DNA from: Candidatus Woesearchaeota archaeon
Lineage (GTDB): Archaea; Nanobdellota; Nanobdellia; Woesearchaeales; JAZDKJ01
NCBI GenBank assembly: GCA_043803105.1
Contig: JAZDKJ010000005.1
Coordinates: 75,566-139,565, forward strand
DNA length: 64,000 nt
Direction of reading: 5' to 3'
The notes beneath the pieces are model-generated. The model was given only the letters and a program-made list of their open reading frames with translations, did not search any database and was not told where the DNA came from. Both the position numbers and the translations under genes were made by a program. Every line of letters starts with the position of its first letter. Position 1 is the stretch's first letter. Shown one piece after another: positions 32,436 through 52,435 of the stretch.

Positions 32436-32498
32436 ATTCATGATTTCTGCAAGACCTAATTGAAAACTTTATATATCAATGCCTGTTGATATGTTTAA

Positions 32499-32786: not shown

Positions 32787-32799
32787 ATAAGGGGGCAAA

Positions 32800-33543
32800 A
32801 TGAAACATGAGGATATAAAGAAAGCAGTGAGAAAAAGCTATTCAAAGATAGCCGATACAGGTTGCGGTTGCTCTTGCGGATGCAATAATATGGATAATGA
32901 GCAAATTGCCAAGAGTTTAGGTTACTCTGAGCAAGATATTAAGGCAGTGCCAGAAGCAAATCTTGGACTTGGTTGTGGTAATCCTACTGCTTTAGGGGAG
33001 ATAAAAGAAGGGATGGTAGTTCTTGATTTAGGCTCAGGGGCAGGGTTTGATTGCTTTCTTGCGGCAAAAAAAGTTGGAAAGAAGGGCAAAGTTATAGGTG
33101 TGGACATGACTGAAAAGATGATTAAGAAAGCAAGAGAAAATGCAAAAAAATATGGTCTTAACAATGTTGAATTCAGGTTAGGAGACATTGAGGAATTGCC
33201 CGTAGATGATAACTCCATTGATATTATCATCAGCAATTGCGTCATTAATCTCTCACCTGACAAAGCCAAAGTTTTTGGTGAAGCATTCAGAGTGTTACGG
33301 AAAGGCGGAAAACTACTTGTTTCAGATATGGTTTTATTGAAAGAACTTTCTGAAATGGATAAGAACGATGAAAAATTAATTACTAGGTGTGTTGGCGTGG
33401 CTATACTGAAGAATCAATATCTAAAACTGATTAAGGATGCTGGATTAAATGTCAAGATTCTCTCGGAAGATAAGGAGATAAGCGATAGGCAGTACAGTGG
33501 ATTGCCTGTTGAAAGCCTAAAATTAACCGCATATAAGAAATGA
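32800..33543 (+). CDS. arsM: arsenite methyltransferase
   Basis: [25 protein letters not shown]. Confidence 0.9.
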
Positions 33544-33554
33544 GGGATACGACC

Positions 33555-33785
33555 ATGAAAATTGAAATACTTGGAACAGGTTGTCCGAAGTGCAAGATGC
33601 TTGAAGCCAATGCAAAAAAGGCTGTTGAAGAATTGAGAATCAAGGCAGAGATTGTCAAAGTAACAGAAATAGACAAGATAGTAGACTATGGTGTTATGTC
33701 TACACCAGCACTGGTAGTTGATGGCAAAGTGAAGTCGTATGGCAAAATAGCTAATGTTGAAGAGATCAAGAAATTCTTAAGATGA
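33555..33785 (+). CDS. small thioredoxin-like redox protein (MTH895 type)
   Basis: ILGTGCPKC, YGVMSTPALVVDG. Confidence 0.9.
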   Translation: MKIEILGTGCPKCKMLEANAKKAVEELRIKAEIVKVTEIDKIVDYGVMSTPALVVDGKVKSYGKIANVEEIKKFLR

Positions 33786-33796
33786 GACAAAAATAA

Positions 33797-34864
33797 ATGA
33801 TAGTTACAGATTTATTCATAGCGGGCATAAAGGCAGTAATTGAGTATGTTGCAGCTCATGTTCTAACTTGCCTTGTCCCTGCCTTCTTTATTGCTGGAGC
33901 TATGTCAGCCCTGCTTCCAAAAGAAAAAATCACCCAATACCTTGGTCAAAAAGTTTCAAAGCTTAAGGCATACCCCCTGTCAGTTGTCGCAGGTTTGTTA
34001 CTGGCAGTCTGTTCCTGCACAATCTTACCCTTATTTGCAGGTATAAAGAAGAAAGGCGCAGGGATAGGTCCTGCTTTAGCATTCTTGTATACGGCTCCTG
34101 CTACAAATATAATGGCTATTCTCTTTACTGGAAGCGTTTTAGGATGGAACTTTGCTCTCGCCAGAATAATCTTATCTGTCACTTTTGCAATAGTTATCGG
34201 CATAATAATATCTACAATATTCAAGAAAGAAGATTTGGAGGAAGAGAAAAAGGCAACTCCTGCTCTTGTTAGCGCTAAGGTGCAGGATAGCAAAGATATG
34301 CCATTCTTCCAGAAGCACAGGCTAATATTCTTTTTCATTACACTTGTATCAATACTCATTGTAGGAACGAGAGTGAATGGGTATTTAAGGTACGTAATCA
34401 TAGCTGGCTTAATTGTTATTTTAACACTCTTGACCAAATTGCTTTTCTCAAAAGAAGAAACCAAATCATGGCTTTTTGAAACTTGGACATTCACAAAGAA
34501 GATTTTTCCACTTCTTTTAGGAGGCATCTTCTTAGCAGGTGTCTTAACAGCACTCCTACCTCAAAACTTCCTAGCTACCTTCATGGGCAAAAATACTCTG
34601 TTTGCCAATCTTATTGCCGTATTATTTGGCGTATTTATGTATTTCCCGACCTTGGTAGAAGTTCCAATGGCAAAAATGTTCTTAGGACTTGGCATGGCAA
34701 AAGGACCACTATTTGCCTATCTGCTTGCAGACCCAGTAATCTCACTTGCAAGCATTCTTGTGGTAAGAAAATTCATAGGGACCAAAAGAACCCTAGTTTA
34801 TGTGGGCTTAATCATAGTGTTCACAACAATCTCAGGATTGATATACGGAGCGATAGTAGGGTGA
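33797..34864 (+). CDS. ArsP-family permease
   Basis: HVLTCLVPAFFIAG, LAVCSCTILPLF, ars context. Confidence 0.85.
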   Translation: MIVTDLFIAGIKAVIEYVAAHVLTCLVPAFFIAGAMSALLPKEKITQYLGQKVSKLKAYPLSVVAGLLLAVCSCTILPLFAGIKKKGAGIGPALAFLYTAPATNIMAILFTGSVLGWNFALARIILSVTFAIVIGIIISTIFKKEDLEEEKKATPALVSAKVQDSKDMPFFQKHRLIFFFITLVSILIVGTRVNGYLRYVIIAGLIVILTLLTKLLFSKEETKSWLFETWTFTKKIFPLLLGGIFLAGVLTALLPQNFLATFMGKNTLFANLIAVLFGVFMYFPTLVEVPMAKMFLGLGMAKGPLFAYLLADPVISLASILVVRKFIGTKRTLVYVGLIIVFTTISGLIYGAIVG

Positions 34865-34875
34865 TAGGTGGAAAA

Positions 34876-35337
34876 ATGAAAGCAACGATAATAATCATGG
34901 CTCTAATAGCTCTATTTTTGCAGGGATGTGCTGACACAAACCAGAATTCTTCAATCACAGAAGATTTGTTAAGTAATCAGAGTGCCAAGGCATCAGTAGA
35001 AAAGATTGAAGTTTTCCATTTTCACGGAACGAACCAATGCTATTCATGCAAAACAGTAGGAGCATATGCAAATGAGACAGTATACACATATTATGCTGCC
35101 GAGATTCAGTCAGGCAAGATTGTGTTCAATTCCGTTAATTACGACCTGATAGATAATAAAGTAACAGCCATGAAATATGGCGTTAGTGGTTCATCACTGT
35201 GGATAGGAGTATATGACAGCCAAGGATTCCATCCTGAACAGAACACCAATGTATGGTATAAGATTAATGACAAGCAAGATTTTATGACTTACCTTAAAAG
35301 GATCATTGATAGAAGACTGGCAGGAGATTTTAGCTAG
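34876..35337 (+). CDS. ArsF-like thioredoxin-fold lipoprotein
   Basis: Lipobox LQGC; FHGTNQCYSC. Confidence 0.7.
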   Translation: MKATIIIMALIALFLQGCADTNQNSSITEDLLSNQSAKASVEKIEVFHFHGTNQCYSCKTVGAYANETVYTYYAAEIQSGKIVFNSVNYDLIDNKVTAMKYGVSGSSLWIGVYDSQGFHPEQNTNVWYKINDKQDFMTYLKRIIDRRLAGDFS

Positions 35338-35338
35338 A

Positions 35339-36049
35339 ATGGGATTGATGGCTTTTATGGAGGCTATGGGGAGCAGTAGTATACCACTGATTGCTGCTTT
35401 CTTTATCGGGTTGATGACCGCCATAGCTCCTTGCCCTCTAACCACAAATATCACAGCCATTGCCTACATCTCAAAGAAGATAGGAGATAGCAAACGAACT
35501 CTGCTAATTGGATTGATATACACTCTAGGAAGGGCACTTACTTATGTAGCTATTGCTTCAGTAATCGTTTGGTTAGGGTTAAATATTCAAGCAATTGCTC
35601 TCCCATTGCAGAAATACAGCAATATACTTCTTGGACCATTGCTTATAATAATCGGAATAGTCCTGCTTGAACTAGTAAAGCTTGATTTTATCAAAGGATT
35701 TTCTGGAATCAATAAACTTGAGGAACAGGTTTCTAAACAACGGTATTTTGGAAGCTTTCTCCTTGGAGTGATATTTGCTTTAGCATTCTGCCCATTCAGC
35801 GCTGTTCTGTTCTTTGGTATGCTTATCCCTCTCGCTTTAAAAGCAGGAGATGGGATAGTTATCCCATCGGTTTTTGCGTTAGCAACAGGCCTACCTGTGA
35901 TTATTTTTTCTTTCATCTTGGTGCACAGCGTAACAAAACTGGCAAAGGTGATGAACAAGGTTAGGATAGTTGACAGATGGGTAAGGAATGTTGCAGGGGT
36001 TGTTTTTATCGGAGCAGGAATTTACTACTCAGTGTCTGTTTTCTTGTGA
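35339..36049 (+). CDS. ArsG/DsbD-like membrane protein
   Basis: PCPLTTNITAI, LAFCPFSAVLFFGMLIP. Confidence 0.8.
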   Translation: MGLMAFMEAMGSSSIPLIAAFFIGLMTAIAPCPLTTNITAIAYISKKIGDSKRTLLIGLIYTLGRALTYVAIASVIVWLGLNIQAIALPLQKYSNILLGPLLIIIGIVLLELVKLDFIKGFSGINKLEEQVSKQRYFGSFLLGVIFALAFCPFSAVLFFGMLIPLALKAGDGIVIPSVFALATGLPVIIFSFILVHSVTKLAKVMNKVRIVDRWVRNVAGVVFIGAGIYYSVSVFL

Positions 36050-36050: not shown

Positions 36051-36085
36051 AAAACTCCGCTCTTCCCGATATATGCCCCGAAAAG
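36051..36085 (+). repeat. core site type A, copy 1
   Basis: AAAACTCCGCTCTTCCCGATATATGCCCCGAAAAG, immediately after the ars operon stop codon. Confidence 0.85.
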
Positions 36086-36124
36086 TATTTATATTCCTTT
36101 TCGTCTATGTTTCTCGACGAGAAG

Positions 36125-36200
36125 AAACTCGACTCATCCCGACTTTGCCTGGGAGAAGATTGACAAAGCAGAAGTGCTGAGAAAAGAAGCAGGACTTTAG
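36125..36200 (+). repeat. metK 3'-tail copy B1
   Basis: AAACTCGACT followed by HPDFAWEKIDKAEVLRKEAGL*. Confidence 0.95.
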
Positions 36201-36295
36201 TCATTTATTATGACGTGAAGGTTATTTTTTTATTTTCTTCTTTCGGTTTATAGAAGTGATTTCTCTTTTAATTATGTGTAAACCCTCCTTTAAAA

Positions 36296-37108
36296 TCAAA
36301 CCATTTCTTCCTTGCACGCAACTAAGTAACTTCTTACCAAATCCAAATCAAGGCAGTCATCTGTTCTAACTCCGCTTTCAACATCGATACTTACCCTATT
36401 TGGAAAAAACGGTAATAAGGACCTAATTAATGGTCTGACATTGGATGGTTTTATCCCTCCAGCATAAACCAATCCTAAGTGGTTTAAACCACTATTTGCA
36501 ATAATACTCTTTCCGAATTTTACTGCCAAACAGCCCTCATCAAGATTCAGGTCTAAATTAGTCCCGTGGCTAGGGTCAAACATTGCATAATCAATAACAC
36601 CTCTTCTATCAATAACTTGGCCAACTAACGGTTCTACTTGTCCAGTTGATACGTCTTCAACTTTATCTCCTTTCCAAACCGCATATCCTTCTTGAGGAGA
36701 CTGTTTGTTTGATACTGCCACTTTGAAAATCACTGTGAAACCCATTTCCTTAATCTTGCTCAGAACATCTAGTGATGCAGGCAATGTGTTAAGCTGGAGT
36801 AATGTAACTGAAGGAGTTACTCCTAACCTAACAATCGTTTCCAAATCTCCAATTATCGTTTCATTATTTTTTGTATAATAATGCACCGCAGTAATGAATC
36901 CATAACCTCTTGTTAGTCTGTCTAGATACCCTAAATCTGCAAACTTTGGCTGTCTTGTGTTTTGGCTCCCTTGGTTTATGCTCTTATTAGAGACTTGGTA
37001 ACCAATAGCCAACGGAAGCGTAAAATCTACCTCATGGCAAATTCCAGCTATTCCGCCGAGCTGATCGCTGTTAGAAATAGCACTTACTGAGATATAATTT
37101 ACTGGCAT
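36296..37108 (-). CDS. TrpF/PRAI-like TIM-barrel protein
   Basis: LLQLN, FDPSHG, YAGGIKPSNV, IDVESGVR. Confidence 0.65.
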   Translation of the reverse strand: MPVNYISVSAISNSDQLGGIAGICHEVDFTLPLAIGYQVSNKSINQGSQNTRQPKFADLGYLDRLTRGYGFITAVHYYTKNNETIIGDLETIVRLGVTPSVTLLQLNTLPASLDVLSKIKEMGFTVIFKVAVSNKQSPQEGYAVWKGDKVEDVSTGQVEPLVGQVIDRRGVIDYAMFDPSHGTNLDLNLDEGCLAVKFGKSIIANSGLNHLGLVYAGGIKPSNVRPLIRSLLPFFPNRVSIDVESGVRTDDCLDLDLVRSYLVACKEEMV

Positions 37109-37258
37109 AAAACAATGAATATTCTATCCCTTTTAAACGTTTATATTGCAGAGAGATACTTAGCTATTCCTAATGCATATCAAATGGTTTTACCGAATTT
37201 ATGGAAAGTACTCTTTGTAAAAGGTCAGTATCAGCAGATTTAAAATCTTATATGTCAC

Positions 37259-37291
37259 AATCTCAGCTCATCCTGACCAATGCCACAAAAG
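37259..37291 (+). repeat. core site type A, copy 2
   Basis: AATCTCAGCTCATCCTGACCAATGCCACAAAAG. Confidence 0.75.
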
Positions 37292-37334
37292 GTATTTATA
37301 CTTCTGGTTCGTCTACATTTATAGACGGAAAGAG

Positions 37335-37409
37335 AAATCCGCCCACTCTCCCGTTACCTGGGAGAAGACTGACAAAGCAGAAGTGCTGAGAAAGGAAGCA
37401 GGCTTATAG
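37335..37409 (+). repeat. metK 3'-tail copy B2
   Basis: ...TWEKTDKAEVLRKEAGL*. Confidence 0.93.
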
Positions 37410-37480
37410 AAAAATATCAGGACGACAATGACATTTTTTTATTATTTTTTTTTGTTGAAAAGTCGGGATTATAGTCGAGA

Positions 37481-37532
37481 TGCTCAGAAATTATAAATTT
37501 CTGGCACGCTAAAAATCATAGATTTTTGAGCG
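37481..37532. mobile_element. 52-bp double-hairpin insertion (REP/MITE-like)
   Basis: Interrupts GAGA|TTTCTATCGT, which is contiguous in the leader at 32384-32397; inverted ends GCTCA...TGAGC. Confidence 0.65.
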
Positions 37533-37700
37533 TTTCTATCGTACTAAAAAGCAAGAATGTGGCTACATTGGTGCTACAATACATAAGAAAAAAGACCACT
37601 CTTTGCATTAATGATCAAAATATTGTTTATTGATCAATATATTGCTTCAAGCTGGCCATCACTCAGAAAATCTTATAAATATGCTGAATATAAAACCTAT

Positions 37701-38531
37701 ATGAAGATTATACTACTCGGAACAGCAGGGGTGGTACCTATTCCTAGATTGGGATGCTCTTGCGAGATATGCCTTGAAGCCCGAAAAAAGGGCATTCCTT
37801 ATAGTAGGACAGGTACATCGCTATTTGTAGAAGACATCGATTTGCTTTTTGACACCCCTGAGGAGATTAGGGCCTAACTTGAAAGAGAAAAGATTAATTC
37901 CTTAAAGCATGTAATCCTAACACATTGGCATCCTGATCACACCTTAGGGTTGAGGATTCTAGAACAATACAATTTTGATTTTGTCAACAAGGTTTCTTTA
38001 CATGAACCTGTCATGGTATATATTTCACGAGACCAATTTGACATGTTCAAAAAACTCTCTTGCGGAGGTTTTCTTGATTTCTATGAGAAGAAAGGTATTA
38101 TCAAGCTTGTTTTCATTGAACCGAACAAGAAAATTACAATTGGCAAAATTTCGATAGAACCAATATTGATAGAATTCACGAAGGGATTTTACTTTGTAAT
38201 ATCTGAAGGCAAAAAAAAGGTAGTCTATGCGCCTTGCGAATATCACCATTTAGAAGTAGATGTCACAACACGAAATGTTGATGTCTTCATAGCGCATAAT
38301 CTTTTTTGGGAGGATAGGTCAATCAGTCCGCGAAAGGTGCCTCCCTCGGATGAAGATAGTTTTGAGCAAATGCTCAATCATGCAAAAGAGATGAATGCCA
38401 GGAGAATTGTAATTACACACATAGAAGAAACTTTCAAGCTAAATCACGATGAACTCAATGCAGTATTAAGAAAGAAATTTCCTGGGTACAATGTTGAAGC
38501 AGGTTATGATAGCATGAAAATAATTTTATGA
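37701..38531 (+). pseudogene. PhnP-like MBL hydrolase with in-frame TAA at 37875-37877
   Basis: LLGTAG..P..GCSCEIC; reading continues in the same frame LERE...THWHPDH...THIEE. Confidence 0.85.
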
Positions 38532-38559
38532 AGTTGCTTGATTAAGAAGACAAAAATTA

Positions 38560-38910
38560 TTACGGGCTGTATCTTGTCCTGTCCCTTGGGAAAAGGCTCG
38601 CCTGCCTGACATTCTCTAAACCAAGAAATTTGGCAGTCAACCGTTCCCCTCCTATACCAAAACCACCATGAGGGGGCATACCATATTTGAAAGCTGCAAG
38701 ATAGCCTTCAAACTCATCTAGATTCATGTTATTTTTCTTCATGGCAGCTATTAGCATGTCGTAATCGTGAATCCTCTGCCCGCTTGTGGTTACTTCGAGA
38801 CCGTTCATAATAAGGTCAAACGAATTTGTGAGACCATCGTTCTTACCTGAAGGCATCGTATAAAAAGGTCTGGCTTCCGATGGATATTCGGTAAGAAAAA
38901 CAAAGGGCAA
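38560..38910 (-). pseudogene. C-terminal fragment of Asp/Asn-tRNA ligase
   Basis: RPFYTMP, SFDL, GQRIH, YGMPPHGGFGIGGERL, FPRD; N-terminal three quarters absent. Confidence 0.85.
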
Positions 38911-39012
38911 ATTCGAGTCTTGTTATATGAAACTGAGTTATCTCACAGGAAGATGGCTGCTGAAATTAGCATATACTTGCTTGAGAATTTTGGATTAATG
39001 ATTTCGAATTGA
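38892..39012 (+). pseudogene. 3' remnant of a paralog of ORF 40833-41549
   Basis: QIRVLLYETELSHRKMAAEISIYLLENFGLMISN* vs QIRVLLEETKLAHRKMAAEINTYLLESFGLNISS*. Confidence 0.85.
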
Positions 39013-39064
39013 AAGTATCTTTTGCAAGGCAATTTAATAACGAAATGCCCCAAAAACTTTTTAT

Positions 39065-39400
39065 CTAGAATATCTTGACAAGCTCTTCTTTAACTTTTTT
39101 GAATGTGTTCTCCTTCAGAGACCCAATCTTCATGATTATTAGTGATTTTTCTACACAAAATATCTTGTCAACCCTGATTCTACTCTCTGTAACAAGTTTT
39201 CCAGCAGACATATCCTGTTGGCTTATCAGAACTGAATATGGCTCATCTTTTATCACTGAGGTCAATGGCACCATTATGCAATCTGCAGACTTCTTGTTCA
39301 ACAGGTCATTTGAGACGACAAGCGCAGGCCTTACCTTATTTTGCTTCAAATCGGAAAAAGGATAAGGCAACAATACTATGTCTCTTTGCGAGACAATCAT
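39065..39400 (-). CDS. mazF: MazF/PemK toxin
   Basis: DIVLLPYPFSD..KVRPALVVSN, PLTS. Confidence 0.9.
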   Translation of the reverse strand: MIVSQRDIVLLPYPFSDLKQNKVRPALVVSNDLLNKKSADCIMVPLTSVIKDEPYSVLISQQDMSAGKLVTESRIRVDKIFCVEKSLIIMKIGSLKENTFKKVKEELVKIF

Positions 39401-39654
39401 TTCAGGTACGACCCCCAGATGTCATCAGATTTATTGTCCCAAACTTTCTTTAAGGATTTCTCGCTGAATTTCAAAATATCCTTGAATTCATCCTTTAGCT
39501 TTTTTTCAGTGTCCTTGGATTTCTCCAACACTATTTTCCCATCTACCTGAAGCATAACAAGGTCATCCCCCTTCTCAATCCCAAGACTTTCTCTTACGGA
39601 TTGCGGGATGGCTATTTGCCCCTTGTCAGACACTTTTACAGTTGCAATGCTCAT
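39397..39654 (-). CDS. AbrB/MazE antitoxin
   Basis: VSDKGQIAIPQSVRESLGIEKGD; promoter palindrome AGTAAGAATTTTCTTACT at 39673-39690. Confidence 0.9.
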   Translation of the reverse strand: MSIATVKVSDKGQIAIPQSVRESLGIEKGDDLVMLQVDGKIVLEKSKDTEKKLKDEFKDILKFSEKSLKKVWDNKSDDIWGSYLK

Positions 39655-39714
39655 TTTGTCACCACTTTATGCAGTAAGAATTTTCTTACTTATAAAGATT
39701 GCGTTTATTTCAAC

Positions 39715-39748
39715 AAAACTCCGCCCTTCCAGATAAATGCCCCAAAAG
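39715..39748 (+). repeat. core site type A, copy 3
   Basis: AAAACTCCGCCCTTCCAGATAAATGCCCCAAAAG; a partial AAATGCCCCAAAA lies at ~39043 on the other side of mazEF. Confidence 0.85.
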
Positions 39749-39799
39749 CAGATGGCCTACAAGATATATAGCATAATATAATCAATTCTTGTTTTAGGT

Positions 39800-40108
39800 T
39801 TATATCATCAATAGAAGTGGAATGATTGAGTTATTCCCTTTTTCTGTGATAATCTCACTTATCTTATCGTATCGCTCGAGGTTAAGGTAATATTTCCAGC
39901 CATGCTGTTTTTTCTTTTTACAACATATGTTCTGCTTCAACAGGGCATCAAGAACAATCTCAACTTTATCAACGTCTTCTTTTGGGATTCCAGATTTCAG
40001 GACATGAATATATGCAGAACCTTTTCCAAAACAGTTTGAGTCAAATAACTTCTTAACAATTGTCCTGCTAATTTTTATATATTCGCTCCTCTTTATCTTT
40101 GCCATCAA
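39800..40108 (-). CDS. hypothetical basic protein (wHTH-like)
   Basis: ORF; helix-rich, ending KKKQHGWKYYLN. Confidence 0.55.
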   Translation of the reverse strand: MMAKIKRSEYIKISRTIVKKLFDSNCFGKGSAYIHVLKSGIPKEDVDKVEIVLDALLKQNICCKKKKQHGWKYYLNLERYDKISEIITEKGNNSIIPLLLMI

Positions 40109-40209
40109 GTGAAATAACGCTTATCTTGTATATAATTAGATGGTCTAAATTTAGCCCCTTGTAGGCCTAAAAGAAAGCTTTAAATACATGTTTATCTTTC
40201 AAGATTCCA

Positions 40210-40582
40210 ATGGAGAAATCAGTTTTTTTTGGCGGAGGAGGGAAATACCCCGAAGAACAGGATATGGAGTTTCTTAATAGTACATTCCGAATATGATTAC
40301 TCCATGAGAGAAATCGCAAGATACTCACAAGTAGGTTACACAACATTAAAAGGAATTTGGATAGATTTTAAGAAAAAGAAGATAGTTACGCAAACACGAC
40401 TTGTTGGAAGAGCAAAGATGTACAAGTTAAATCTGAAGAATCCTGTTGTAAATAAATTTGTGGAGTACTATTGGGCTGTGGTGGAAGCGGTCATAAGAAA
40501 GGAAAACAACATCAGCGAGGATGATACAGTAACCCATCCTTCTTCGGCTGATGCGATTCCCCTTTCTACAAAAAGCATTTAA
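40210..40582 (+). CDS. HTH regulator, probable frameshift in T8 tract near start
   Basis: DYSMREIARYSQVGYTTL, TRLVGRAKMYKLN; ATG 40210 joins the frame only if T8 becomes T7. Confidence 0.7.
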
Positions 40583-40603
40583 TGGCTGATTTTCGAACGA
40601 AGT

Positions 40604-40680
40604 AAAACTCTGCTCATCCGGACTTTACATGGGAATGGGTAGATAAAGCGGAAGTCCTGCGGAGGGAAGCAGGCTTGTAA
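40604..40680 (+). repeat. metK 3'-tail copy B3
   Basis: AAAACTCTGCT followed by HPDFTWEWVDKAEVLRREAGL*. Confidence 0.95.
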
Positions 40681-40832
40681 GCCAAAGTCAAGACGTGAAC
40701 GTCATTTTTTATTTTTGTTTTTTATTGAAAAATCGAAGCTTGTGGACGATATTTCTTTCGTTGTATAAGCAAGATTGTAGCTACATTAGTGCGACGCAAA
40801 GTGTTTTAAGGATTAAATGATTCCTCTCAACG

Positions 40833-41549
40833 ATGGTATACTTACCTAGTCTTGTTGAGTATTTTCAAATTGAAATAGAAGCCCTCAACGGAGTCAGTTG
40901 CTCTACAAGAGCTTCTTCATACATTGTGCCTGAAGATATCTTTGCCCAAAAAGCAAAGTTTGAACCCAGATTTCAAAAGGCCCAAGAAAAAAGCTTACCA
41001 TATACATGGATTGTCTGGGAAGAACCACTAACAGTGGGAGTTTACTTTCCAAGCACACTTTTGCAAAGTCTGGACAATTGCAGATTTGTCAATACAGCTG
41101 ATGCTTTAGATGTCTTGGAAGAAACGAGTCATTTCTTATATATTCATAATTACGCTGCGAGATTCAAGGAAATGCCTCATTATATCAATCTGGAAATAGT
41201 AGCTTCCTTAGAGAAATATTTTGTTACCAAGCAGAAAGCAAAGACTTTGAAAGAATTTGATATGGGTCCTGTAAGAACAGTGTGCTTCAATGGTGCTTAT
41301 CGAGATACTTTGGACATGGACCATATTATTGGTCACTCTTTGGCAGAGCCATTAGCCAAAAAATTGGATGAAGTTGAAGATGAAGCAGGATTATCCCAAA
41401 GAAATGAATTATACAGAAAATTCTATAATAAGGGAAACAAAGAGCAAATCCGAGTGTTGTTGGAAGAGACTAAGTTGGCACACAGGAAGATGGCTGCCGA
41501 AATCAATACTTATCTGCTTGAGAGTTTTGGATTAAATATCTCAAGCTGA
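40833..41549 (+). CDS. hypothetical protein (EETSHF motif, possibly metallopeptidase-like)
   Basis: 238-aa ORF filling one cassette. Confidence 0.6.
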   Translation: MVYLPSLVEYFQIEIEALNGVSCSTRASSYIVPEDIFAQKAKFEPRFQKAQEKSLPYTWIVWEEPLTVGVYFPSTLLQSLDNCRFVNTADALDVLEETSHFLYIHNYAARFKEMPHYINLEIVASLEKYFVTKQKAKTLKEFDMGPVRTVCFNGAYRDTLDMDHIIGHSLAEPLAKKLDEVEDEAGLSQRNELYRKFYNKGNKEQIRVLLEETKLAHRKMAAEINTYLLESFGLNISS

Positions 41550-41574
41550 TGTATCTGCTTTAAGGTTAAGTACA

Positions 41575-41608
41575 AAAACTCCGCTTTTCCCGATATATGC
41601 CCCGAAAG
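41575..41608 (+). repeat. core site type A, copy 4
   Basis: AAAACTCCGCTTTTCCCGATATATGCCCCGAAAG, nearly identical to copy 1. Confidence 0.88.
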
Positions 41609-41651
41609 CTACTGTATCTCTCCTGTAATTATCATTTATTAAGCTCCTTAT

Positions 41652-41669
41652 TTACTTACATGTAAGTAA
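41652..41669. promoter_or_regulatory. perfect 18-bp palindromic operator
   Basis: TTACTTACATGTAAGTAA immediately before the TTTATA box of the AbiE-like pair. Confidence 0.7.
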
Positions 41670-41701
41670 CATTTATATACTAGTTATGATACTTACATAG
41701 T

Positions 41702-42271
41702 ATGCGAGGCGATAAACGAGAAAGGATATTGAGAGTATTGCTCAACAGCAAAGAGCCTTTAAGCAAGAATGAGCTCTCAAAACGAGCAGATTGCAGTAGG
41801 CAGTGGGTTATCCTTTATCTGAAAGAGTTAGAGAAGAAGAAGCTTATCAAGGGCACCGCTCCAAGTAATAGAAAAAAACTTTTAGAATATTGGATTATCT
41901 TAGCAAAGAAACCTAAAAAATTCAGGAGTTATATGGTTAAGGAACCACTAGATCTTTTAAAAAAGTCAAAATTAGATTATACGCTGACAACCTATCAGGC
42001 AGAGAACATTGTTCAGCATTATCTTTTCCCCTCAAGAATAGATGTTTACATAAAAGAAGAAGATTTGAATAGTTGGCACAGCCTAATGACCAAGAATGGA
42101 TTATATGGAAAAGGAAATGTTAAGGTGATAGTAGCAGATCCGCATGTTATGTATGGAAAACGAATTATAGATGGACTTTCAATAGTCTCACTGCCACAAC
42201 TTATATTGGATTTAACTCAAGAAGGTGGTCCATGCCAGGAAGCTGCCGAGATGCTCATGAAGAGGTTATAA
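41702..42271 (+). CDS. HTH + AbiEi-like antitoxin
   Basis: N-terminal HTH; YTLTTYQAE, IDVYI, VSLPQLILDL...GG. Confidence 0.7.
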   Translation: MRGDKRERILRVLLNSKEPLSKNELSKRADCSRQWVILYLKELEKKKLIKGTAPSNRKKLLEYWIILAKKPKKFRSYMVKEPLDLLKKSKLDYTLTTYQAENIVQHYLFPSRIDVYIKEEDLNSWHSLMTKNGLYGKGNVKVIVADPHVMYGKRIIDGLSIVSLPQLILDLTQEGGPCQEAAEMLMKRL

Positions 42272-43035
42272 TGTATAAGGAATTTGAGACTAGAATATCG
42301 TACAAGTATTTGAAAGAGGTAATCAACACTCTAGAAGAGCCTATTTGCATACTTGGCGGTTGGGCAGTATTCTTTCATGTAAATAACAGATTTGAGAAAG
42401 CACAAGGCAGGCCTTATTTAGGAAGCAGAGATATTGACTTGGGCTTCCAAATGAAGACAAATTTGAAAGAAACAACTTTGGCTCAAACAATTAGGATTCT
42501 CAAAGAAGAACTCAAGTTTAAGCCGTTAAGTTTCAGGCTTATGAAAGAAATCCATACTGAAACAGAGGAAGAGCTAAAAGAAGGTGAGACTGTCTCTACT
42601 CACTTTATCTTTCCAATGTATGTTGATTTGATAGTTGACTCTATTCCTGACAACTTCAAGAATATTTTTGGATTTAACCCAATAGATGAGCCTTTATTGA
42701 AACAAGTTTTTGAGAACAAGGAATCCACAATGGTCACTGAATTCAATAGAAAATTATTGCTTCCCACCCCTAAGCTTCTTTTAGGCATGAAAGTCAATTC
42801 CCTGCCAAATAGAGATAAAGACCATAAGCGAATAAAAGACATTTGTGACATGTTCGCTTTGTTGTGGTATACAGATATAAAGGCAGAAAAAGTTAATCTC
42901 GGAGATTACGCTTCAAAAAAAGCTATTATAAAAGCTGTTCAAACAATAAATAACCAGGATTACGAAAAAGTGGCTGCTCAAATTGGGCATAGTGCTGAAG
43001 AAATTAAGAGAGTCATCAGCCTATTATTACAATAA
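42271..43035 (+). CDS. AbiEii-like nucleotidyltransferase toxin
   Basis: ILGGWAV, SRDIDLG, MKVNS..R...KRIKDICD. Confidence 0.75.
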   Translation: MYKEFETRISYKYLKEVINTLEEPICILGGWAVFFHVNNRFEKAQGRPYLGSRDIDLGFQMKTNLKETTLAQTIRILKEELKFKPLSFRLMKEIHTETEEELKEGETVSTHFIFPMYVDLIVDSIPDNFKNIFGFNPIDEPLLKQVFENKESTMVTEFNRKLLLPTPKLLLGMKVNSLPNRDKDHKRIKDICDMFALLWYTDIKAEKVNLGDYASKKAIIKAVQTINNQDYEKVAAQIGHSAEEIKRVISLLLQ

Positions 43036-43139
43036 TGAAACCTGCTCATTTAAACAAACGTCATCCAATTTTTACAAGATTGTCGGTATATTTCTTCGTA
43101 AAAAGCCAGGATAAGCAGATTTATGAATTCAAGTAGCAC

Positions 43140-43172
43140 AAACTCTGCCCACTCCGACTAATGCCCCGAAAG
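43140..43172 (+). repeat. core site type A, copy 5
   Basis: AAACTCTGCCCACTCCGACTAATGCCCCGAAAG. Confidence 0.8.
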
Positions 43173-43256
43173 CCAATCAGTTGTATTTGTCCACAGCCAG
43201 GATTACAAACATTTTAATATCCGAATACAGTGGATATCTGGTGAGGTGAGAAATTG

Positions 43257-43469
43257 ATGTCCAAAAAAGATATGAAAAATCAGTGTTTTAACCATGGCTC
43301 CTTTCACCATGGCTGCGGCGGAGCGCTTTATGGCCTTGGGTTTATTGGTTCGGCTGTGTATTACATTTCCACAGCAACAGGCTTTTGGATGGGAGTGTTG
43401 GGATTTTTGAAAGCGATTGTTTGGCCAGCATTCTTGGTATATTCGCTAATGAAATCCTTGGGGATGTAA
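43257..43469 (+). CDS. small membrane protein
   Basis: GAGGTGA SD; YGLGFIGSAVYYI...LKAIVWPAFLVY. Confidence 0.75.
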   Translation: MSKKDMKNQCFNHGSFHHGCGGALYGLGFIGSAVYYISTATGFWMGVLGFLKAIVWPAFLVYSLMKSLGM

Positions 43470-43483
43470 AGTTATAGGAGCAG

Positions 43484-43556
43484 AAACTCGACTCATCCTG
43501 ACTTTACCTGGGAGCATGTAGATAAGGCAGAGATACTAAAAAAGGAAGCAGGATTG
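43484..43556 (+). repeat. metK 3'-tail copy B4
   Basis: AAACTCGACT followed by HPDFTWEHVDKAEILKKEAGL (stop lost). Confidence 0.93.
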
Positions 43557-43825
43557 TTAGTTGCGTTATCGTCACAATTCCCATTTTTTTATATTTAATT
43601 TTTTTTGTGTAAAGACATCATTTTGGGATGAGATTTCTCTTGTAAATTAAATTAAGTACAAAATTCGGACGCATCGAAGATTTTACAACAACTGGGAAAT
43701 TTTCACTAAACATTTGGACGATGAAGATGATGATTACATCCGAACAAACGAAATATTTATATAGAACTATTAGTTCCTATATATGAACCATTAGTTCCGA
43801 TATAGGAACTGCAGGTTATTATGCC

Positions 43826-44419
43826 ATGAAAACGCCAACTGAAAAGGAGAATGAAGCATTGTTGTTGATATTCAAGGATTTTAGTAGCGACTACAATGCT
43901 AACTCAATCTCGAAAAAACTGAATATAACGCCAAGAGGTTCTTTAAAGATATTGAATAGTCTTTACTCAGAAAAGACCCTAGTAAGAAAAAAGCTTGGCA
44001 AAGCTATCTTTTATAAAATCGATTTTGAAGATAATTACACTAAAAAATTGATTGAAGCCCTATTGATAAAAGAATCCAAGGAAAAAGCAGAAAGGTGGCT
44101 GCATGAATTTGGAGGATTAGCTGAAACTGCGCAGATTGTATTAATCTATGGTTCGACTCTAAGAAACTATGACAAAGCCAAGGATGTAGATTTACTGGTG
44201 ATTATTGAGAAAGAGAGGTATAAGGAAGTTAAAAAATTTATTGATGAGAAAAACAATATTTCCTACAAGCCAATACATCCGCTAATAATGACCTTATCAG
44301 ATTTGGAAAAGAACTTGAAAAACAAAAATCCTGCAATGGTTAATGCCATAAGAGAAAGTTATGTTCTTCAAGGTCATGATAAAATGATAGGGGTAGTAAA
44401 AAATGTCACAAGCTTCTAA
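43826..44419 (+). CDS. HTH-MNT antitoxin
   Basis: N-terminal wHTH; IYGS...DVDLL; GAAC-n-ATTAGTTC repeats upstream. Confidence 0.85.
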   Translation: MKTPTEKENEALLLIFKDFSSDYNANSISKKLNITPRGSLKILNSLYSEKTLVRKKLGKAIFYKIDFEDNYTKKLIEALLIKESKEKAERWLHEFGGLAETAQIVLIYGSTLRNYDKAKDVDLLVIIEKERYKEVKKFIDEKNNISYKPIHPLIMTLSDLEKNLKNKNPAMVNAIRESYVLQGHDKMIGVVKNVTSF

Positions 44420-44915
44420 TAAAGTTAAGTGGTGTCTTAACAAGGCAAAGAAGGAATTAGCAGAAATTGGGATGCATCGTGGATTAGTAGAACAAGAACA
44501 AGACTATAAAGTGGCAGCACTTCATATAGCAAAAGCACGACATAACCTCAATGCAGCATTATTTTTTGAGAAAAACAATTATTCTGACTGGTCTGCAAGT
44601 GCTTTCTTCTATTGCATATATCATTGCTTTTTAGCAATCCTGCACAGATTCGGATACGAATCAAGAAACCAGGAATGCACTATTGCAGTAATTGAAATGC
44701 TAAAAGAACAAGGCAAAATTGCTATTGATGATAGATTCATCAGCACTTTAAAGATTTCGAAGGCAAAAGACGATGAGCATAGCTTAGTTAAGATAAGGGA
44801 AGATTTTCAGTATGGCACAAACATAGAGTTTCAGAAGAAAGAACAATTTGAAGAGCTTACCATAATGTGCAAGGAAGCAATAGAAGCAACAAATAAAATT
44901 ATCTTCAGCAAATAA
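44403..44915 (+). CDS. HEPN domain protein
   Basis: AKARHNL, FYCIYH, SRNQECT, REDFQY. Confidence 0.85.
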   Translation: MSQASNKVKWCLNKAKKELAEIGMHRGLVEQEQDYKVAALHIAKARHNLNAALFFEKNNYSDWSASAFFYCIYHCFLAILHRFGYESRNQECTIAVIEMLKEQGKIAIDDRFISTLKISKAKDDEHSLVKIREDFQYGTNIEFQKKEQFEELTIMCKEAIEATNKIIFSK

Positions 44916-44958
44916 AACTCAGCCCATTCCGACCTTACATGGCAAAAAACGGACAAGG
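44914..44958 (+). repeat. metK 3'-tail copy B5 (degenerate, truncated)
   Basis: AAAACTCAGCC followed by HSDLTWQKTDK; overlaps the HEPN stop codon. Confidence 0.75.
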
Positions 44959-45377
44959 TTAGATTAGCAACGGACGGGATTTTAAGAGGTTCAGAAATCC
45001 CTTGATCTCCAAATTCTCTTGTTCTTGACTTTATAAACTTTCAGGAACTGAATTCAGAACCAACCTTAACGAAGTATATAAGCACCATCTGCTCTTCTTA
45101 AAATGAACCTAGGTGGTGCAAAATTATACAAACCGAAAAGACAGCATTTGATCTGCAGATGAAGGAGCAACAAGTAGCGCATTGGGAAACCTACCATCAA
45201 TTGCCTGGATGCAGGGAAATGGGAGAACATCTTGACAAGCAACCTGAGGAGGCAAACTGGAATGGTCAAAGACTGACCCAAAAGTTAGAACCTACTGAGA
45301 GTTTTGTAGATGCAAGTTTTGTGGCTGAACGGGAACTCGATCTCGTCCAGTCAATCCTTGTACTGCAACGTCTTTAA

Positions 45378-47096
45378 TTAAGGTCCTCTAAACTGTCTCA
45401 AGAGCCAGGCGAACAAGTTGTTCAACCATGAAGGCTTAGTAACAGTATGACCTAACGCTTGACCAGTAATCTGGTTGTTGTCAGTTGAAGCAGTTCCATT
45501 AGTACCCTGACCAGTCCCCCCAGTTTCTTGTCTAATGTTGGCCAATTCTGCTGTCTGTAGCTCTGTTGGCACAGTCCTATCTTGGCCTACCGCATTTGTT
45601 TCAGTATGTTTACATGGTTGCTTTTGTTTTGATATGACCTTGCTATTTGGGTAGGTGCATGTCTTTATTTGTATTCCTTCTGAATTGCATGCTGACCATT
45701 CTGAACACTGCCCATTAGCTCCCAAACTTCCGCTACCTCCTGAACTTCCTCCTCCTCCTGAGGATCTCTTTTTCGCAGCCGGATTTGTCGGAATTGTTGG
45801 TGCCTGGAATTCGTTTACTGTTATTGTTATAGCTTCGCTTGCCGATTTTATACTGTCGTTAACTGTGAAGGTCACGTTAGTTACTCCCACATCAGTCACG
45901 TTTGGCATCCAGTTGAAGGTAGCAGTCCCGTCATAATTGTTGGTAAAGTTTGCTGTTGCAGGTTTGCCGGCAATTACAAATGTTAAATTAAACCCGTCTG
46001 GACTTGTGGCTGTTATTGTGAAGTTAAGCAATGTATCCTGCGTAACGCTCATTGAACCGATATGATTGAGTATCGGAGCAGCTGTCTGTACAATAACTAC
46101 GCTTGTTGCGCTTACAGTTCCGCTCGTCGCACTAATTGTAGCGCCGCCAGAAGCAACAGCAGTAACAAGACCGCTTGTAGCATTAACTGTAGCAACAGAC
46201 AAATTGCTTGAAGCATAGGAGATGGTCGCACCTATCAACGAACCATACTGATCAAGACTTGTAGCATTCAACTGCAAAGTAGATCCGACAGTAAGATTTG
46301 CTGATGTTGGTGCTAATATGATTGTTGTCAAAACAGGGACAATAGATGGTAATGAGACAGTATTGGCACTTAATGTAACAGCTGTTTGCGCCAATGCCCT
46401 TCCGTTTAATGTTGCGCCAGTATTCAACACAATCGCTGTTTGATCCAGAATGTTTCCATTGAAAACAGATGTTGTTCCAAGGGTTGTTTTGTCAGCGACT
46501 TGCCAGAAGATGTTGTATGCCTGGCAGCTACCGCTGAGAGTAACAATTGCACCACTGCCCACGGTGAGGGTTCCTGGTATCTGAAAGATGAAGACACCTG
46601 CGGAGTTGCCAAGGCAATCGAGAGTGACACCAGTGTTTATTACAACCCCAGTCCCCCATTTATAGAGCCCAGGAGTGAGAGTCATCCCACTAATATCTCC
46701 CGCACCTAGTTCAGTAACATCAGGTAATGAGCGTCCTGCCGCATCAGTGTACGCTGTTTCCATGTCGCTTATAGCTGTAGCCATAACCAATGGGGTTGGA
46801 TCTGCATAGTCGGCTGCATAAACGCTTCCGTTAACTAAAGATGATGTGGAAAATTGGTTCGATGCATCAAGTATCAGTCCAAATCCTGTGATCGCAGTGC
46901 TGTCGATAGGACTCACCCCAATATTTCCAACAATAGAGGTTGTGCCAGTGGTTGAGATTCCTGATTTTGCCAATATTACAAAATTCCCGGCTGTTCCGAG
47001 ATCTACAGCTGGTTGTGCTGCATATACTGAACATACTACAGATACAAAAACCATAAGATATACAAAGACGTTTGATAATATTTTTGTTTGTTTCAT
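45378..47096 (-). CDS. ice-binding (DUF3494) protein with Ig-like domains
   Basis: LGTAGNFVILAKSGIS, TAYTDAAGR, LTPGLYKW, NIFWQVA, GRALAQTAVTL. Confidence 0.92.
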   Translation of the reverse strand: MKQTKILSNVFVYLMVFVSVVCSVYAAQPAVDLGTAGNFVILAKSGISTTGTTSIVGNIGVSPIDSTAITGFGLILDASNQFSTSSLVNGSVYAADYADPTPLVMATAISDMETAYTDAAGRSLPDVTELGAGDISGMTLTPGLYKWGTGVVINTGVTLDCLGNSAGVFIFQIPGTLTVGSGAIVTLSGSCQAYNIFWQVADKTTLGTTSVFNGNILDQTAIVLNTGATLNGRALAQTAVTLSANTVSLPSIVPVLTTIILAPTSANLTVGSTLQLNATSLDQYGSLIGATISYASSNLSVATVNATSGLVTAVASGGATISATSGTVSATSVVIVQTAAPILNHIGSMSVTQDTLLNFTITATSPDGFNLTFVIAGKPATANFTNNYDGTATFNWMPNVTDVGVTNVTFTVNDSIKSASEAITITVNEFQAPTIPTNPAAKKRSSGGGGSSGGSGSLGANGQCSEWSACNSEGIQIKTCTYPNSKVISKQKQPCKHTETNAVGQDRTVPTELQTAELANIRQETGGTGQGTNGTASTDNNQITGQALGHTVTKPSWLNNLFAWLLRQFRGP

Positions 47097-47354
47097 TTTT
47101 TAATTCCTCCCTAAATAATAAAATACCGTAATGGTAGCAATTTTTTCTGCCTGAAGTTCACATATAGTCCTTAACCCATTGATACAGTTTTATTCTGACT
47201 ATTTTTTACTTCTTAGCAATAGTAATTACTTTTATTACTATAAACATAAGTTATATACTATATATTCAATATATATGCTATAATTACGTCTATAATATAG
47301 GTACTGAAAATAAGTAGTTAGTTTTATATATAACACTAAGTTATTATATATACT

Positions 47355-48347
47355 ATGGAAGATATTAGGGATGAAAGAAAATTAATTAAGTTTGGGAAAT
47401 CAGCTTTTTGTATAACTGTGCCACATACGTGGCTGAAAAAAAACAGGATAAAGAAAGGCGATTCATTGTCTGTTCAGGAAACCCTAAGAAATTCTTTGGA
47501 GATAATGCCAAGGTATAGCTCTTCAAAGGATGCAGAGGAATTATTAATAGACATATCTGGAAAGTCGACTGATGAAATAATACAATTGCTGCTCTCCACA
47601 TACCTAAATGGATATACACTTATCACCTTGCGCGGACCAAATGCAGGAAAAATGGAATTCGTCAGAAAGCATGTACACGAATTTATTGCAGCTGAGATTA
47701 TGGAAGTTACCTCAGACAGGATAGTAATCCAGGTTTTTTGGGACATAAAGACCATAAACCTAAATTCAATAATCATAAGGATAGGACATATCACAAAGAG
47801 CATTTTTTCAGAAACAATAGAGTTGGTTGATTCAGAAACAAATGTAACAGATATAGTGGAAAAAGGATTTGAGGTCCAGCGGCAAGTCTTGCTTGCAAGA
47901 AGGGCCATCCAAAGTGCCCTCAATAATTCGGTTACAGCACACAAATTTAATCTTTCATCATTAGAGCTGCTCTATATCTCTTACATAATCTATTTTTTCG
48001 GAATGACTGGTGATTATATTGTTAAGGTAGCAAAAATTATAGATAAGGCAAAACTCAATAAATCCAAGGATCTTTTGAAGGATCAGAATTCCAAAAAAGA
48101 GTTAAAGGCGTTAATTCAACGGACCTCAGATTATTACGGAAAAGTCATCGATACTTACAATCAGCATAACAAACTTGTAAAGTTTGTATTTAGCGAATAT
48201 GCTGATTTTGAAGACTCCATAGATGAGTTTAGAAGAAAGAACCTCCAAGTATGGGCACCGCTTTTGGCGGAATATCTAAAGATGATTGTATTCAAGATTA
48301 AGGAAACAGAATTCACGATGATCAGCATGGAGAATGCACCAAAATAA
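47355..48347 (+). CDS. AbrB-PhoU type regulator
   Basis: RKLIKFGKSAFCITVPHTW, YLNGY, helical C-terminus. Confidence 0.75.
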   Translation: MEDIRDERKLIKFGKSAFCITVPHTWLKKNRIKKGDSLSVQETLRNSLEIMPRYSSSKDAEELLIDISGKSTDEIIQLLLSTYLNGYTLITLRGPNAGKMEFVRKHVHEFIAAEIMEVTSDRIVIQVFWDIKTINLNSIIIRIGHITKSIFSETIELVDSETNVTDIVEKGFEVQRQVLLARRAIQSALNNSVTAHKFNLSSLELLYISYIIYFFGMTGDYIVKVAKIIDKAKLNKSKDLLKDQNSKKELKALIQRTSDYYGKVIDTYNQHNKLVKFVFSEYADFEDSIDEFRRKNLQVWAPLLAEYLKMIVFKIKETEFTMISMENAPK

Positions 48348-48382
48348 TTTATCCTTTTTCCTCTGGTTTTATAGATGGGAAG

Positions 48383-48459
48383 AAACTCGACTCATCGAGA
48401 CTTTCCCTGGCAGCGAACAGACAAGGCTGAAACATTCCAAAAGGAGGCAAGCACCTTAG
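48383..48459 (+). repeat. metK 3'-tail copy B6 (degenerate)
   Basis: AAACTCGACT followed by HRDFPWQRTDKAETFQKEA. Confidence 0.85.
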
Positions 48460-52075: not shown

Positions 52076-52129
52076 AGCTCTCAACAAAAGGTCTCAACAA
52101 GGAAGATTTATTGCTTCAAGGTTGAGCCT

Positions 52130-52339: not shown

Positions 52340-52435
52340 GTGTCCATATTTACCTTTTTTTAGAGAATATTGACATTATCTGCAGTAGGTGCAGGCACTT
52401 AGACAATAGCATGATAAAGGATAAATAATGATGAG

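Follow-up and report, generated by a model that had tools for sequence, protein, structure and literature searches.

Repeated copies of the metK gene end in a Woesearchaeales genome suggest serial insertion of small cassettes

Why is a single gene for S-adenosylmethionine synthetase (metK) followed, in the genome of a Candidatus Woesearchaeota archaeon, by a series of partial copies of its own 3' end? The locus lies within a 64,000-nucleotide (nt) stretch of contig JAZDKJ010000005.1 (assembly GCA_043803105.1, positions 75,566 to 139,565; this whole stretch is hereafter the window), in a genome of 13 contigs and 1.56 Mb that is 96%-complete (G000). DPANN archaea have small genomes with few recognisable mobile elements, and accessory-gene exchange among them is, to our knowledge, poorly understood. 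In the window, the G+C content drops from 43-46% before metK to 36-39% directly after it, and the 16-kb stretch that follows the gene consists of six cassettes (E0-E5) of 1.2-3.9 kb with 1-6 cargo genes each. The explanation that we consider likely is serial site-specific insertion at the metK 3' end of small cassettes mobilised in trans, each of which would bring a replacement C-terminus and a terminator.

The metK reading frame is complete, and its product matches solved MetK structures over the full length, including the final ...F.WE..DKA..LR..AGL (E 5e-148). A tblastn search with the last 59 amino acids (aa) of MetK recovered six orphan copies of the gene end downstream, five of them comprising 17-20 codons each and the sixth being weak. 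The target gene and the orphan tails are located in the window as follows.

31164..32318, + strand: metK, S-adenosylmethionine synthetase, bacterial-type, 384 aa, open reading frame (ORF); target gene
36138..36200, + strand: orphan tail B1; tblastn match 36138-36197, PDFAWEKIDKAEVLRKEAGL, E 7e-9; peptide intact, stop TAG
37356..37409, + strand: orphan tail B2 (TWE... and stop TAG); tblastn match 37356-37406, TWEKTDKAEVLRKEAGL, E 1.5e-6; type-B P arm
40618..40680, + strand: orphan tail B3; tblastn match 40618-40677, PDFTWEWVDKAEVLRREAGL, E 1.3e-8; peptide intact, stop TAA
43497..43559, + strand: orphan tail B4; tblastn match 43497-43556, PDFTWEHVDKAEILKKEAGL, E 3.8e-9; peptide intact, stop lost (TTA)
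44928..44975, + strand: orphan tail B5, heavily decayed, with indels; weak tblastn match 44931-44966, E 0.51
48396..48459, + strand: orphan tail B6, outermost, decayed, no P' arm after it; tblastn match 48399-48449, DFPWQRTDKAETFQKEA, E 2.4e-4

Tail B5 was recognisable solely through the upstream 18-nt motif that it has in common with the other tails. The positions, peptides, codons and stops agree, by tblastn and codon listing, with those quoted in a preceding interpretation made from the letters of the DNA (the sequence-only reading). A tail profile (nhmmer) found no match across the 1.56-Mb genome outside the metK locus, and among the 1254 ORFs of at least 150 aa that were scanned, a series of downstream orphan C-terminus copies was seen for metK only. 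Separately, at C12:37271-41374, the C-terminus of a 176-aa ORF (C12:37271-37801) is repeated twice downstream (+1.65 and +3.5 kb, 69% identity); here, an array of paralogues is more probable than a second landing site.

The differences among the tails are those of translated sequence. Between the working metK tail (T0) and B3, 20 nt differences are distributed over codon positions 1/2/3 as 4/1/15, and the 13 nt differences between T0 and B4 as 3/2/8; throughout T0 and B1-B4, the differences are mainly third-position or synonymous first-position changes. When the same number of substitutions was placed randomly (5000 simulations per tail pair), amino-acid changes as few as those observed arose in at most 0.02% of trials (P<=0.0002) for nine of the ten pairs among T0 and B1-B4, and in 2.5% of trials for the B1-B2 pair, which has just 6 nt differences; the tail pairs are not independent, and the pair counts overstate the number of separate tests. 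Pairs involving B5 or B6 were close to random expectation. Synonymous bias was also seen in all 11 working/orphan pairs from ten other genomes or contigs (P<=0.0025). Because the bias holds between orphans, and not just between orphans and T0, the B1-B4 tails diverged while they were translated. The strong synonymous bias for T0 and B1-B4, together with the pairs from elsewhere, bears out the proposal of the sequence-only reading that the tails were once working MetK C-termini, a proposal for which it had suggested this count of synonymous and non-synonymous differences. That reading also had the tails decaying with distance from metK as a chronological record. The outer two tails are decayed, but the decay is a step, with four inner tails intact and two outer ones (B5 and B6) decayed, rather than a smooth gradient. 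The order of the array is compatible with age and does not prove it; strict chronological order is not established because cassettes may also have entered at an inner tail site, and the likeness drawn to a CRISPR or integron array is an analogy only.

The tails are accompanied by conserved non-coding arms. Five of them (B1, B3, B4, B5 and B6) share an upstream arm of type A, in which ...GAAACTCGACTCAT stands immediately 5' of CCNGACTTTACCTGGGAG. Nine copies of AAACTCNNCNCNTCCNGA (at most one mismatch) occur in the island, all on the + strand, against a single one in the other 1.5 Mb. A second repeat, D3, accounts for four of the nine; it continues differently and is followed by a B recognition element (BRE)/TATA-like box. 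At B1 and B2, the full upstream arm (P arm) runs from D3 through the TATA-like box and a 7-bp hairpin (TTCGTCTA...TAGACGG) to an X motif. This D3-to-X layout of ~110 nt also precedes orphan tails in G088, G217, G105, G137, G119 and the metagenome contig L055, and the P arm is near-identical across families. The upstream arm at B2 is of a second type, B (TTCGTCTACATTTATAGACGG-AAGAGAAATCCGCCCA-N6-GTTACCTGGGAG), and since type B recurs in G105 and G217, the absence of 'PDF' from B2 reflects an arm subtype and not decay. Downstream, the P' arm begins after the stop codon with GACGTGAA-like sequence and oligo-T tracts, followed by GACGAGATTTCT at +55 to +70 and then by AGCAA..TGTGGCTACA..AGTGCTACAAAA; the oligo-T tract is likely a terminator. 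Within G000, neither the hairpin nor the P' motifs occur outside the island, barring two chance-level matches at the mismatch limit. The arms of the newest cassette and the D3 boxes are located as follows.

32319..32440, + strand: P' arm of newest cassette E0; oligo-T, TAGACGAGATTTCTATCGT at 32379, TGTGGCTACAAAAGTGCTACAA at 32413
36052..36137, + strand: full P arm of E0; D3a at 36052, TATA-like box, hairpin TTCGTCTA..TCGACGA at 36100, X motif AAACTCGACTCAT at 36125
36052 (D3a), 37259 (D3b), 39716 (D3c), 41576 (D3d) and ~43140 (D3e): D3 boxes, five copies

The P' arm follows the working tails of G000, G088, L055, G137 and G217, all of which are cassette-bearing; compared by eye, the E0 copy has ~80% similarity to the DNA downstream of the working tail in G088, a genome from another family. 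The P' arm also follows the inner orphans, being in its typical position at B1, B3, B4 and the G217 orphan, a variant at B2, and at +178 for the L055 orphan. It was missing behind the outermost orphan of the arrays (B6 in G000 and its counterparts in G088, G009/G212, G115, G325 and G338), and none of ~19 relatives without cassettes had it behind the working tail; in G039, the start of a P' arm resembling that of B2 is present. This distribution supports entry adjacent to metK, as the sequence-only reading had it. Rfam returned no match at E<=0.1 for the region 30000-52000, and RNAalifold on six P-arm-to-tail stretches found the 7-bp hairpin alone to be conserved, with no compensatory change and none of the 15 predicted pairs covarying, so that a structured or guide RNA in the P arm and tail is unsupported. 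The repeated arm motifs (the 18-nt motif in both D3 and X; GACGAG in both the hairpin and P') look like putative protein-binding sites for a complex recombination assembly, and, more speculatively, the D3/TATA box could promote expression of the cargo or of a transcript that spans the junction.

Tail and gene body are incongruent in their relationships. Measured from TGG through the stop (51 nt), the working tail of G000 has 86% identity with three tails from other families, namely the working ones of G088 and G177 and the orphan one of G217, whereas the 150 nt of metK directly upstream are 63% identical between G000 and G088 or G177. L055, the genome nearest to G000 in its gene body (84% aa identity over the whole protein; 75% nt identity over the last 150 nt), has a tail that is just 76% identical. 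When three sequences are set side by side, they are particular to each host as far as ...ACC and alike from TGGGAGCGTGTTGATAAAGC on, the switch falling at ACC-TGG-GAG (ACCTGGGAG); in the type-B arms, likeness to metK starts only at (T)TACCTGGGAG, which fits exchange at Thr-Trp-Glu. The P' distribution and the incongruence of tail and body thus suggest that the working C-terminus and terminator are cassette-borne and are exchanged at or next to the Thr-Trp-Glu codons. With the exchange point there, the exchanged peptide would be 14 residues (16 including Trp-Glu), which corrects the ~21 residues of the sequence-only reading, and the swap of the C-terminus at insertion that it anticipated is supported by the 86% tail identity as opposed to the 63% of the body. 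The last 14 metK codons (from ~32274, after Trp-Glu) are accordingly best regarded as a part of the newest cassette, as judged by these comparisons.

Orphan tails were also found outside G000. The last 45 aa of MetK were searched over 401 genomes (a tally including eight unpublished genomes), with a match in 296, and 15 genomes with at least two matches to the MetK C-terminus were examined (G053, G077, G173, G241 and G288 were left out). Eight of the 15 have orphan tails (G105, G177, G379, G115, G137, G217, G325 and G338). Rejected as orphan tails were the second matches in G254, G082 and G042, which are second full-length homologues (on another contig: G254:C57:36629-36724, G082:C3:60170-60262, G042:C67:2621-2743), the second match in G076, which is a contig overlap, and the weak and unrelated matches in G054, G302 and G282. 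G009, G212, G088 and G119 bring the number of other species genomes with orphan tails downstream of metK to 12, from 11 families; contig L055 has such a tail as well. The arrays in these genomes are short (1-2 orphans), and several assemblies break at the tails. The foreign cassettes span 0.6-2.2 kb, and their cargo includes Fic, an aminotransferase, an ArsP permease with a SHOCT protein, an AAA kinase, an OmdA-like protein, a MutS-V-like ATPase, small membrane proteins and two-gene pairs.

In addition to the arms, one cassette has spread horizontally. Cassette E4, which encodes a nucleotidyltransferase (NTase) and a HEPN protein, has a homologue between metK and the orphan tail in G009 and G212 (genus g9, another family) and in two metagenome contigs; the E4 genes are 77% and 81% identical (nt) to the G009/G212 homologues, as compared to 68% for metK. 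More distant NTase-HEPN cassettes stand at metK in G137 and G217. As a separate observation, tail B5 ends in ...GGGATTTTAAG, resembling the Ala-Gly-Phe-stop tails peculiar to genus g9 (44928-44975 vs L054:519-575 and L053:5324-5380), and it is this genus, with its B5-like tail ends, that also carries the E4 homologue. ArsP_1-type permeases occur as metK-cassette cargo in two families (L078 from G119, 8079-9179, - strand; window 33797-34864).

How such an array might have been assembled can be set out as a model, of which the recombination chemistry, the exact crossover point and the current mobility form the predicted part. A cassette would comprise, in order, a 14-codon tail after Trp-Glu, a stop, a P' arm, 1-6 cargo genes and a P arm, the last either in a full form (D3 with the TATA-like element, the 7-bp hairpin and the 18-nt X motif) or in a short form (X alone). 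An attP-like region of ~330 nt would be split on integration, with the P' arm placed on the left, together with the new tail, and the P arm on the right, before the old tail; the strands would be exchanged at the invariant ACC-TGG-GAG (Thr-Trp-Glu) codons or close to them. A new C-terminus and terminator for metK would arrive with the cassette, and the former tail would be left behind the P arm of that cassette. The outermost tail, B6, would be the native tail, which its decay and the absence of a P' arm make probable for this lineage. If the reaction ran backwards, the excised cassette would take the tail in use with it, and purifying selection on the tail peptide would therefore be expected. 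The recombinase would act in trans, being either host-encoded or supplied by a helper element outside this assembly.

Several points weigh against this model. The cargo attached to one tail-plus-P' end differs among G000, G088 and G177, so that ends and cargo would have to be reshuffled by some further process. B5 shows no less decay than B6, which lies farther out, and the likeness of B5 to the g9 tails hints that two units may have moved together, which a simple one-cassette model does not predict. The solo D3 boxes (D3c, D3d and D3e), a fragment of an aspartyl-tRNA synthetase (AspRS) gene and a piece of a 238-aa gene suggest that the array was also rearranged otherwise. No recombinase was linked to the sites, with the small ORFs of the foreign cassettes being only partly scanned against Pfam, and neither excised circles, unoccupied sites in near-identical strains nor population variants appeared in the assembled sequence. 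Additionally, tyrosine recombinases usually need a dyad-symmetric core, and by inspection only, the core here is without clear dyad symmetry. For comparison with Xer-dependent elements (IMEX or dif modules), a dif site has two 11-bp inverted arms and a 6-bp spacer (PMC2958812); the weak dyad around ACCTGGGAG matches at ~6/9 positions with a spacer of 8-10 nt (inspection only).

The search for a recombinase covered the locus, the genome and the relatives. The ORFs of the window gave no Pfam match to recombinase families, including PF00589, and neither did 14 ORFs from within or beside the cassettes of other genomes (4 + 10 scanned with Pfam; small ORFs not all covered). At metK itself, 13 species genomes and one metagenome contig showed neither an integrase gene nor a recognisable fragment of one. 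In G000, PF00589 matches are located on contigs C6, C7 and C10 only and comprise a XerA-like protein (275 aa, C6), three related integrases and one weak match; the three, at C7:31119-32375, C10:28832-30073 and C6:519961-521256, are tyrosine-type paralogues of 413-431 aa that carry a CxxC...CxxC zinc ribbon at the C-terminus and are 23-29% identical to one another. The genome has no match to serine recombinases (PF00239) or IS110 transposases (PF01548), and one sub-threshold match only to the TnpB-type PF07282. Homologues of the large integrases show no association with orphan tails, being present in 3-4 of 10 tail-bearing and 3-4 of five tail-free genomes, and no arm motifs lie near any integrase of G000. 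Viral contigs scanned with the type-A arm, a degenerate tail pattern, the hairpin and the P' motif yielded nothing in two cases and chance matches (no tail or D3 nearby) in two; a scan of genome and metagenome contigs with the type-A pattern returned chromosomal metK loci only.

The failure to find such a gene at the locus bears on a different account, in which each unit is the dead remainder of an integrase-bearing integrative element (plasmid or virus) that entered at metK, has since lost its integrase and backbone by deletion, and is immobile; cis-mobilisable elements classically originate in this way. In archaea and bacteria, elements have been documented to integrate in tandem at one att site and then to lose the integrase (PMC8371274 and PMC7563491), pseudogenes and gene fragments are found in E2, and the three large integrases are encoded elsewhere in the genome. 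We nevertheless hold this account to be unlikely, although such elements may be the distant origin of the cassettes. No trace of an integrase was seen at metK in any of the 13 species genomes or the metagenome contig, the large-integrase homologues do not co-vary with the tails, and the arms are highly conserved across families, which would be unexpected for dead DNA. Moreover, the same two-gene NTase-HEPN unit has the same ends in two families and is more similar between them than metK is, and it would therefore have spread either without a recombinase or together with a helper.

Two further explanations dispense with site-specific insertion. Local duplication of the metK 3' end, by long target-site duplication or replication slippage with neutral decay in place, would produce direct repeats in one orientation and would agree with the greater decay of the two outer copies. 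This process, of which the sequence-only reading had named neutral decay of local duplications as what would refute it, is contradicted by the strongly synonymous differences between orphans; in addition, the orphans have common upstream and downstream arms that metK is without, and the working tail is closer to the tails of other families than the gene body is, leaving local duplication scarcely credible. Entry by homologous recombination through the ~50-nt tail repeats after uptake of foreign DNA, with no site-specific enzyme, would be in keeping with the lack of a detected recombinase, the possible co-transfer of E4 and the tail that follows it, and the shuffling of cargo between conserved ends. 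It is judged quite improbable: tails that are 60-86% identical over ~50 nt make a poor substrate, the switch between host-specific and shared sequence falls at one place in three genomes, and conserved non-coding arms of >200 nt with repeated motifs point to protein-binding sites.

Serial insertion of trans-mobilised cassettes, as the preferred explanation, has parallels in known systems. The array resembles cis-mobilisable elements (CIMEs) in being without recombination genes and integron cassettes in size. The excerpted account of streptococcal CIMEs and microCIMEs (130-220 bp) describes them as deletion derivatives accreted at the 3' end of fda, rpsI, rpmG and rplL, and found only in tandem with an integrative and conjugative element or integrative and mobilisable element that supplies the integrase (PMC7563491). 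In common with CIMEs as portrayed there, att-repeat flanks rebuild the 3' end of a protein gene, the units are without recombination genes of their own, accretion is in tandem, the cargo is adaptive and the sizes fall in a range from ~0.1 to 13 kb. At metK, the direct repeats include the 3' end of the target with metK intact, and no recombination or transfer genes were found (Pfam, cassette ORFs). The metK arrays differ in that no integrase-bearing partner was seen (13 genomes), in having up to six units, in their DPANN host and in the metK target. Among archaea, 14 of 68 integrated elements of Thaumarchaeota sit in the 3'-distal region of protein-coding genes according to the portions consulted of PMC6563490 and the review PMC8371274. 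Such elements, as presented in those sources, are likewise site-specific in a protein gene, supply the stop and the gene end, and can integrate in tandem; theirs are multigene elements with their own integrase or casposase, whereas the metK units are 1-4 kb, without such an enzyme, and use one gene across an order.

An integron carries intI adjacent to its array (CALINs, the clusters of attC sites lacking integron-integrases, are without it), and its attC sites are imperfect inverted repeats (R''-L''...L'-R') that fold single-stranded and have a GTTRRRY core. Integrons and CALINs, including archaeal ones, are alike in the available part of one report (10.1101/2022.02.06.479319) in having small, promoter-poor, recombinase-less cassettes with a repeated site in one orientation, in common toxin-antitoxin cargo and in the newest cassette adjoining the insertion point. 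The metK array differs from integrons, as described there, in having no adjacent intI and in insertion inside an essential gene, the end of which is replaced each time. No intI was found beside the array (no PF00589 match in the window; the IntI-specific domain was not searched), and the metK sites consist of a direct 18-nt motif and tail with a sole stem of 7 bp, which is not attC-type (no attC model was run). The array was therefore rejected as an integron.

Islands at RNA genes offer a looser comparison. Tycheposons of Prochlorococcus have their own integrases in the excerpted account (10.1101/2020.12.28.424599), and for the ssrA-targeting islands of Dehalococcoides the abstract is silent on an integrase of their own (PMC3146451). 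In both, going by these partial accounts, insertion is repeated at a conserved gene end, older units are pushed inward and partial gene copies mark the events, as at metK; the targets are tRNA or tmRNA genes, and no peptide-coding tail under purifying selection is involved. A tycheposon targets a tRNA gene and encodes a tyrosine or serine recombinase of its own; no tRNA genes were found in the window and no recombinase in the cassettes, and the cassettes were not classed as tycheposons. Casposons have a Cas1-type casposase, terminal inverted repeats and a short target-site duplication. The cassettes are not of this kind, with no Cas1 in the Pfam results for cassette ORFs and with repeats of ~50-60 nt that carry synonymous differences.

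The literature consulted (full text, with supplements and most subscription journals outside this scope) held nothing on a metK attachment site or on such arrays in DPANN archaea. What is new is the metK target, the host group, the arrays, composed entirely of recombinase-less mini-cassettes, at one gene across at least 12 families, the elaborate arms and the repeated replacement of the C-terminus. The end of an essential gene thus collects toxin-antitoxin, candidate-defence, metal-resistance-like and surface-protein genes, with orphan tails in at least 12 families of the order. The C-terminal 14 residues of an essential enzyme would here be repeatedly replaced in nature by horizontally travelling copies, and such replacement would be the reason why non-coding repeats show 'coding' conservation. 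The arms are conserved far better than the surrounding genomes and therefore provide a searchable signature for the missing enzyme and for tracking gene flow in uncultured archaea. More tentatively, and with some doubt, the metK 3' end may be a chromosomal gene-capture platform of the Woesearchaeales, integron-like in its working and different in build, with a chassis of ~330-nt arms around exchangeable cargo and either a host-encoded enzyme or a new recombinase family; for such a platform, the universal XerA-like recombinase would be the candidate enzyme by elimination. If true, the platform would rank among the main routes by which these reduced-genome symbionts exchange genes.

The content of the six cassettes is as follows (Pfam; NCBIfam and PADLOC added little on the cargo, with weak PRAI and PhnP matches).

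32499..36049, + strand: E0 cargo, an ars-like operon with ArsR-type regulator, S-adenosylmethionine (SAM) methyltransferase, thioredoxin-like protein, ArsP_1 permease, 153-aa ORF and DsbD-like membrane protein
36201..37355, + strand: cassette E1; P' arm, 270-aa PRAI-like ORF (36296-37108, minus strand), D3b at 37259, hairpin at 37308, type-B arm
37410..40617, + strand: cassette E2; P' arm, split metallo-beta-lactamase (MBL)-fold gene, AspRS C-terminal fragment (- strand), MazF/MazE pair (- strand), D3c at 39716, 102-aa ORF, 117-aa truncated NTase-like ORF, X motif at 40605
40681..43496, + strand: cassette E3; P' arm (40689, 40743), 238-aa ORF, D3d at 41576, 189-aa helix-turn-helix protein, 267-aa ORF, D3e at ~43140, X motif at 43484
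43560..44927, + strand: cassette E4; P' arm, degenerate D3 and TATA box, NTase (197 aa) and HEPN (170 aa), X motif at 44915
44976..48395, + strand: cassette E5; 572-aa ice-binding-like surface protein (minus strand), 330-aa ORF with AbrB/MazE-like N-terminus, X motif at 48383

In E4, the X motif abuts the stop codon of the HEPN gene, and the NTase matches the candidate defence family PDC-M05A (PADLOC). Cassette E2 holds several broken genes. The MBL-fold (PhnP-like) gene is split over two ORFs (37611-37877 and 37950-38531) and is probably a pseudogene. A 116-aa ORF at 38560-38910 (- strand) corresponds to the C-terminal third of class-II Asp/Asn/Lys-tRNA synthetases (tRNA-synt_2, 192-307 of 308); this AspRS-type 3' fragment may be a relic of another gene-end target. 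Additionally, the last 30 codons of the 238-aa ORF in E3 (41429-41549) are repeated in E2 (38892-39012) over 121 nt (77% identical; 73% at the peptide level), which suggests a deleted sister cassette.

Elsewhere in the window, an L10P ribosomal protein (with the archaeal insert present) and ELP3 are encoded (Pfam), which mark the genome as archaeal, and a second stretch of low G+C (36-39%) at 51000-56000, beyond the last tail, carries a MarR-type regulator and several ORFs with no Pfam match; this stretch may be another island. Tail B6 is flanked by two ice-binding-like (PF11999) surface proteins, one in E5 (45378-47096, - strand) and one outside the array (49439-50974, - strand). Just after B6, at 48461-49464 (- strand), lie two overlapping membrane ORFs with no Pfam match, which we presume to resemble archaeosortase-type proteins.

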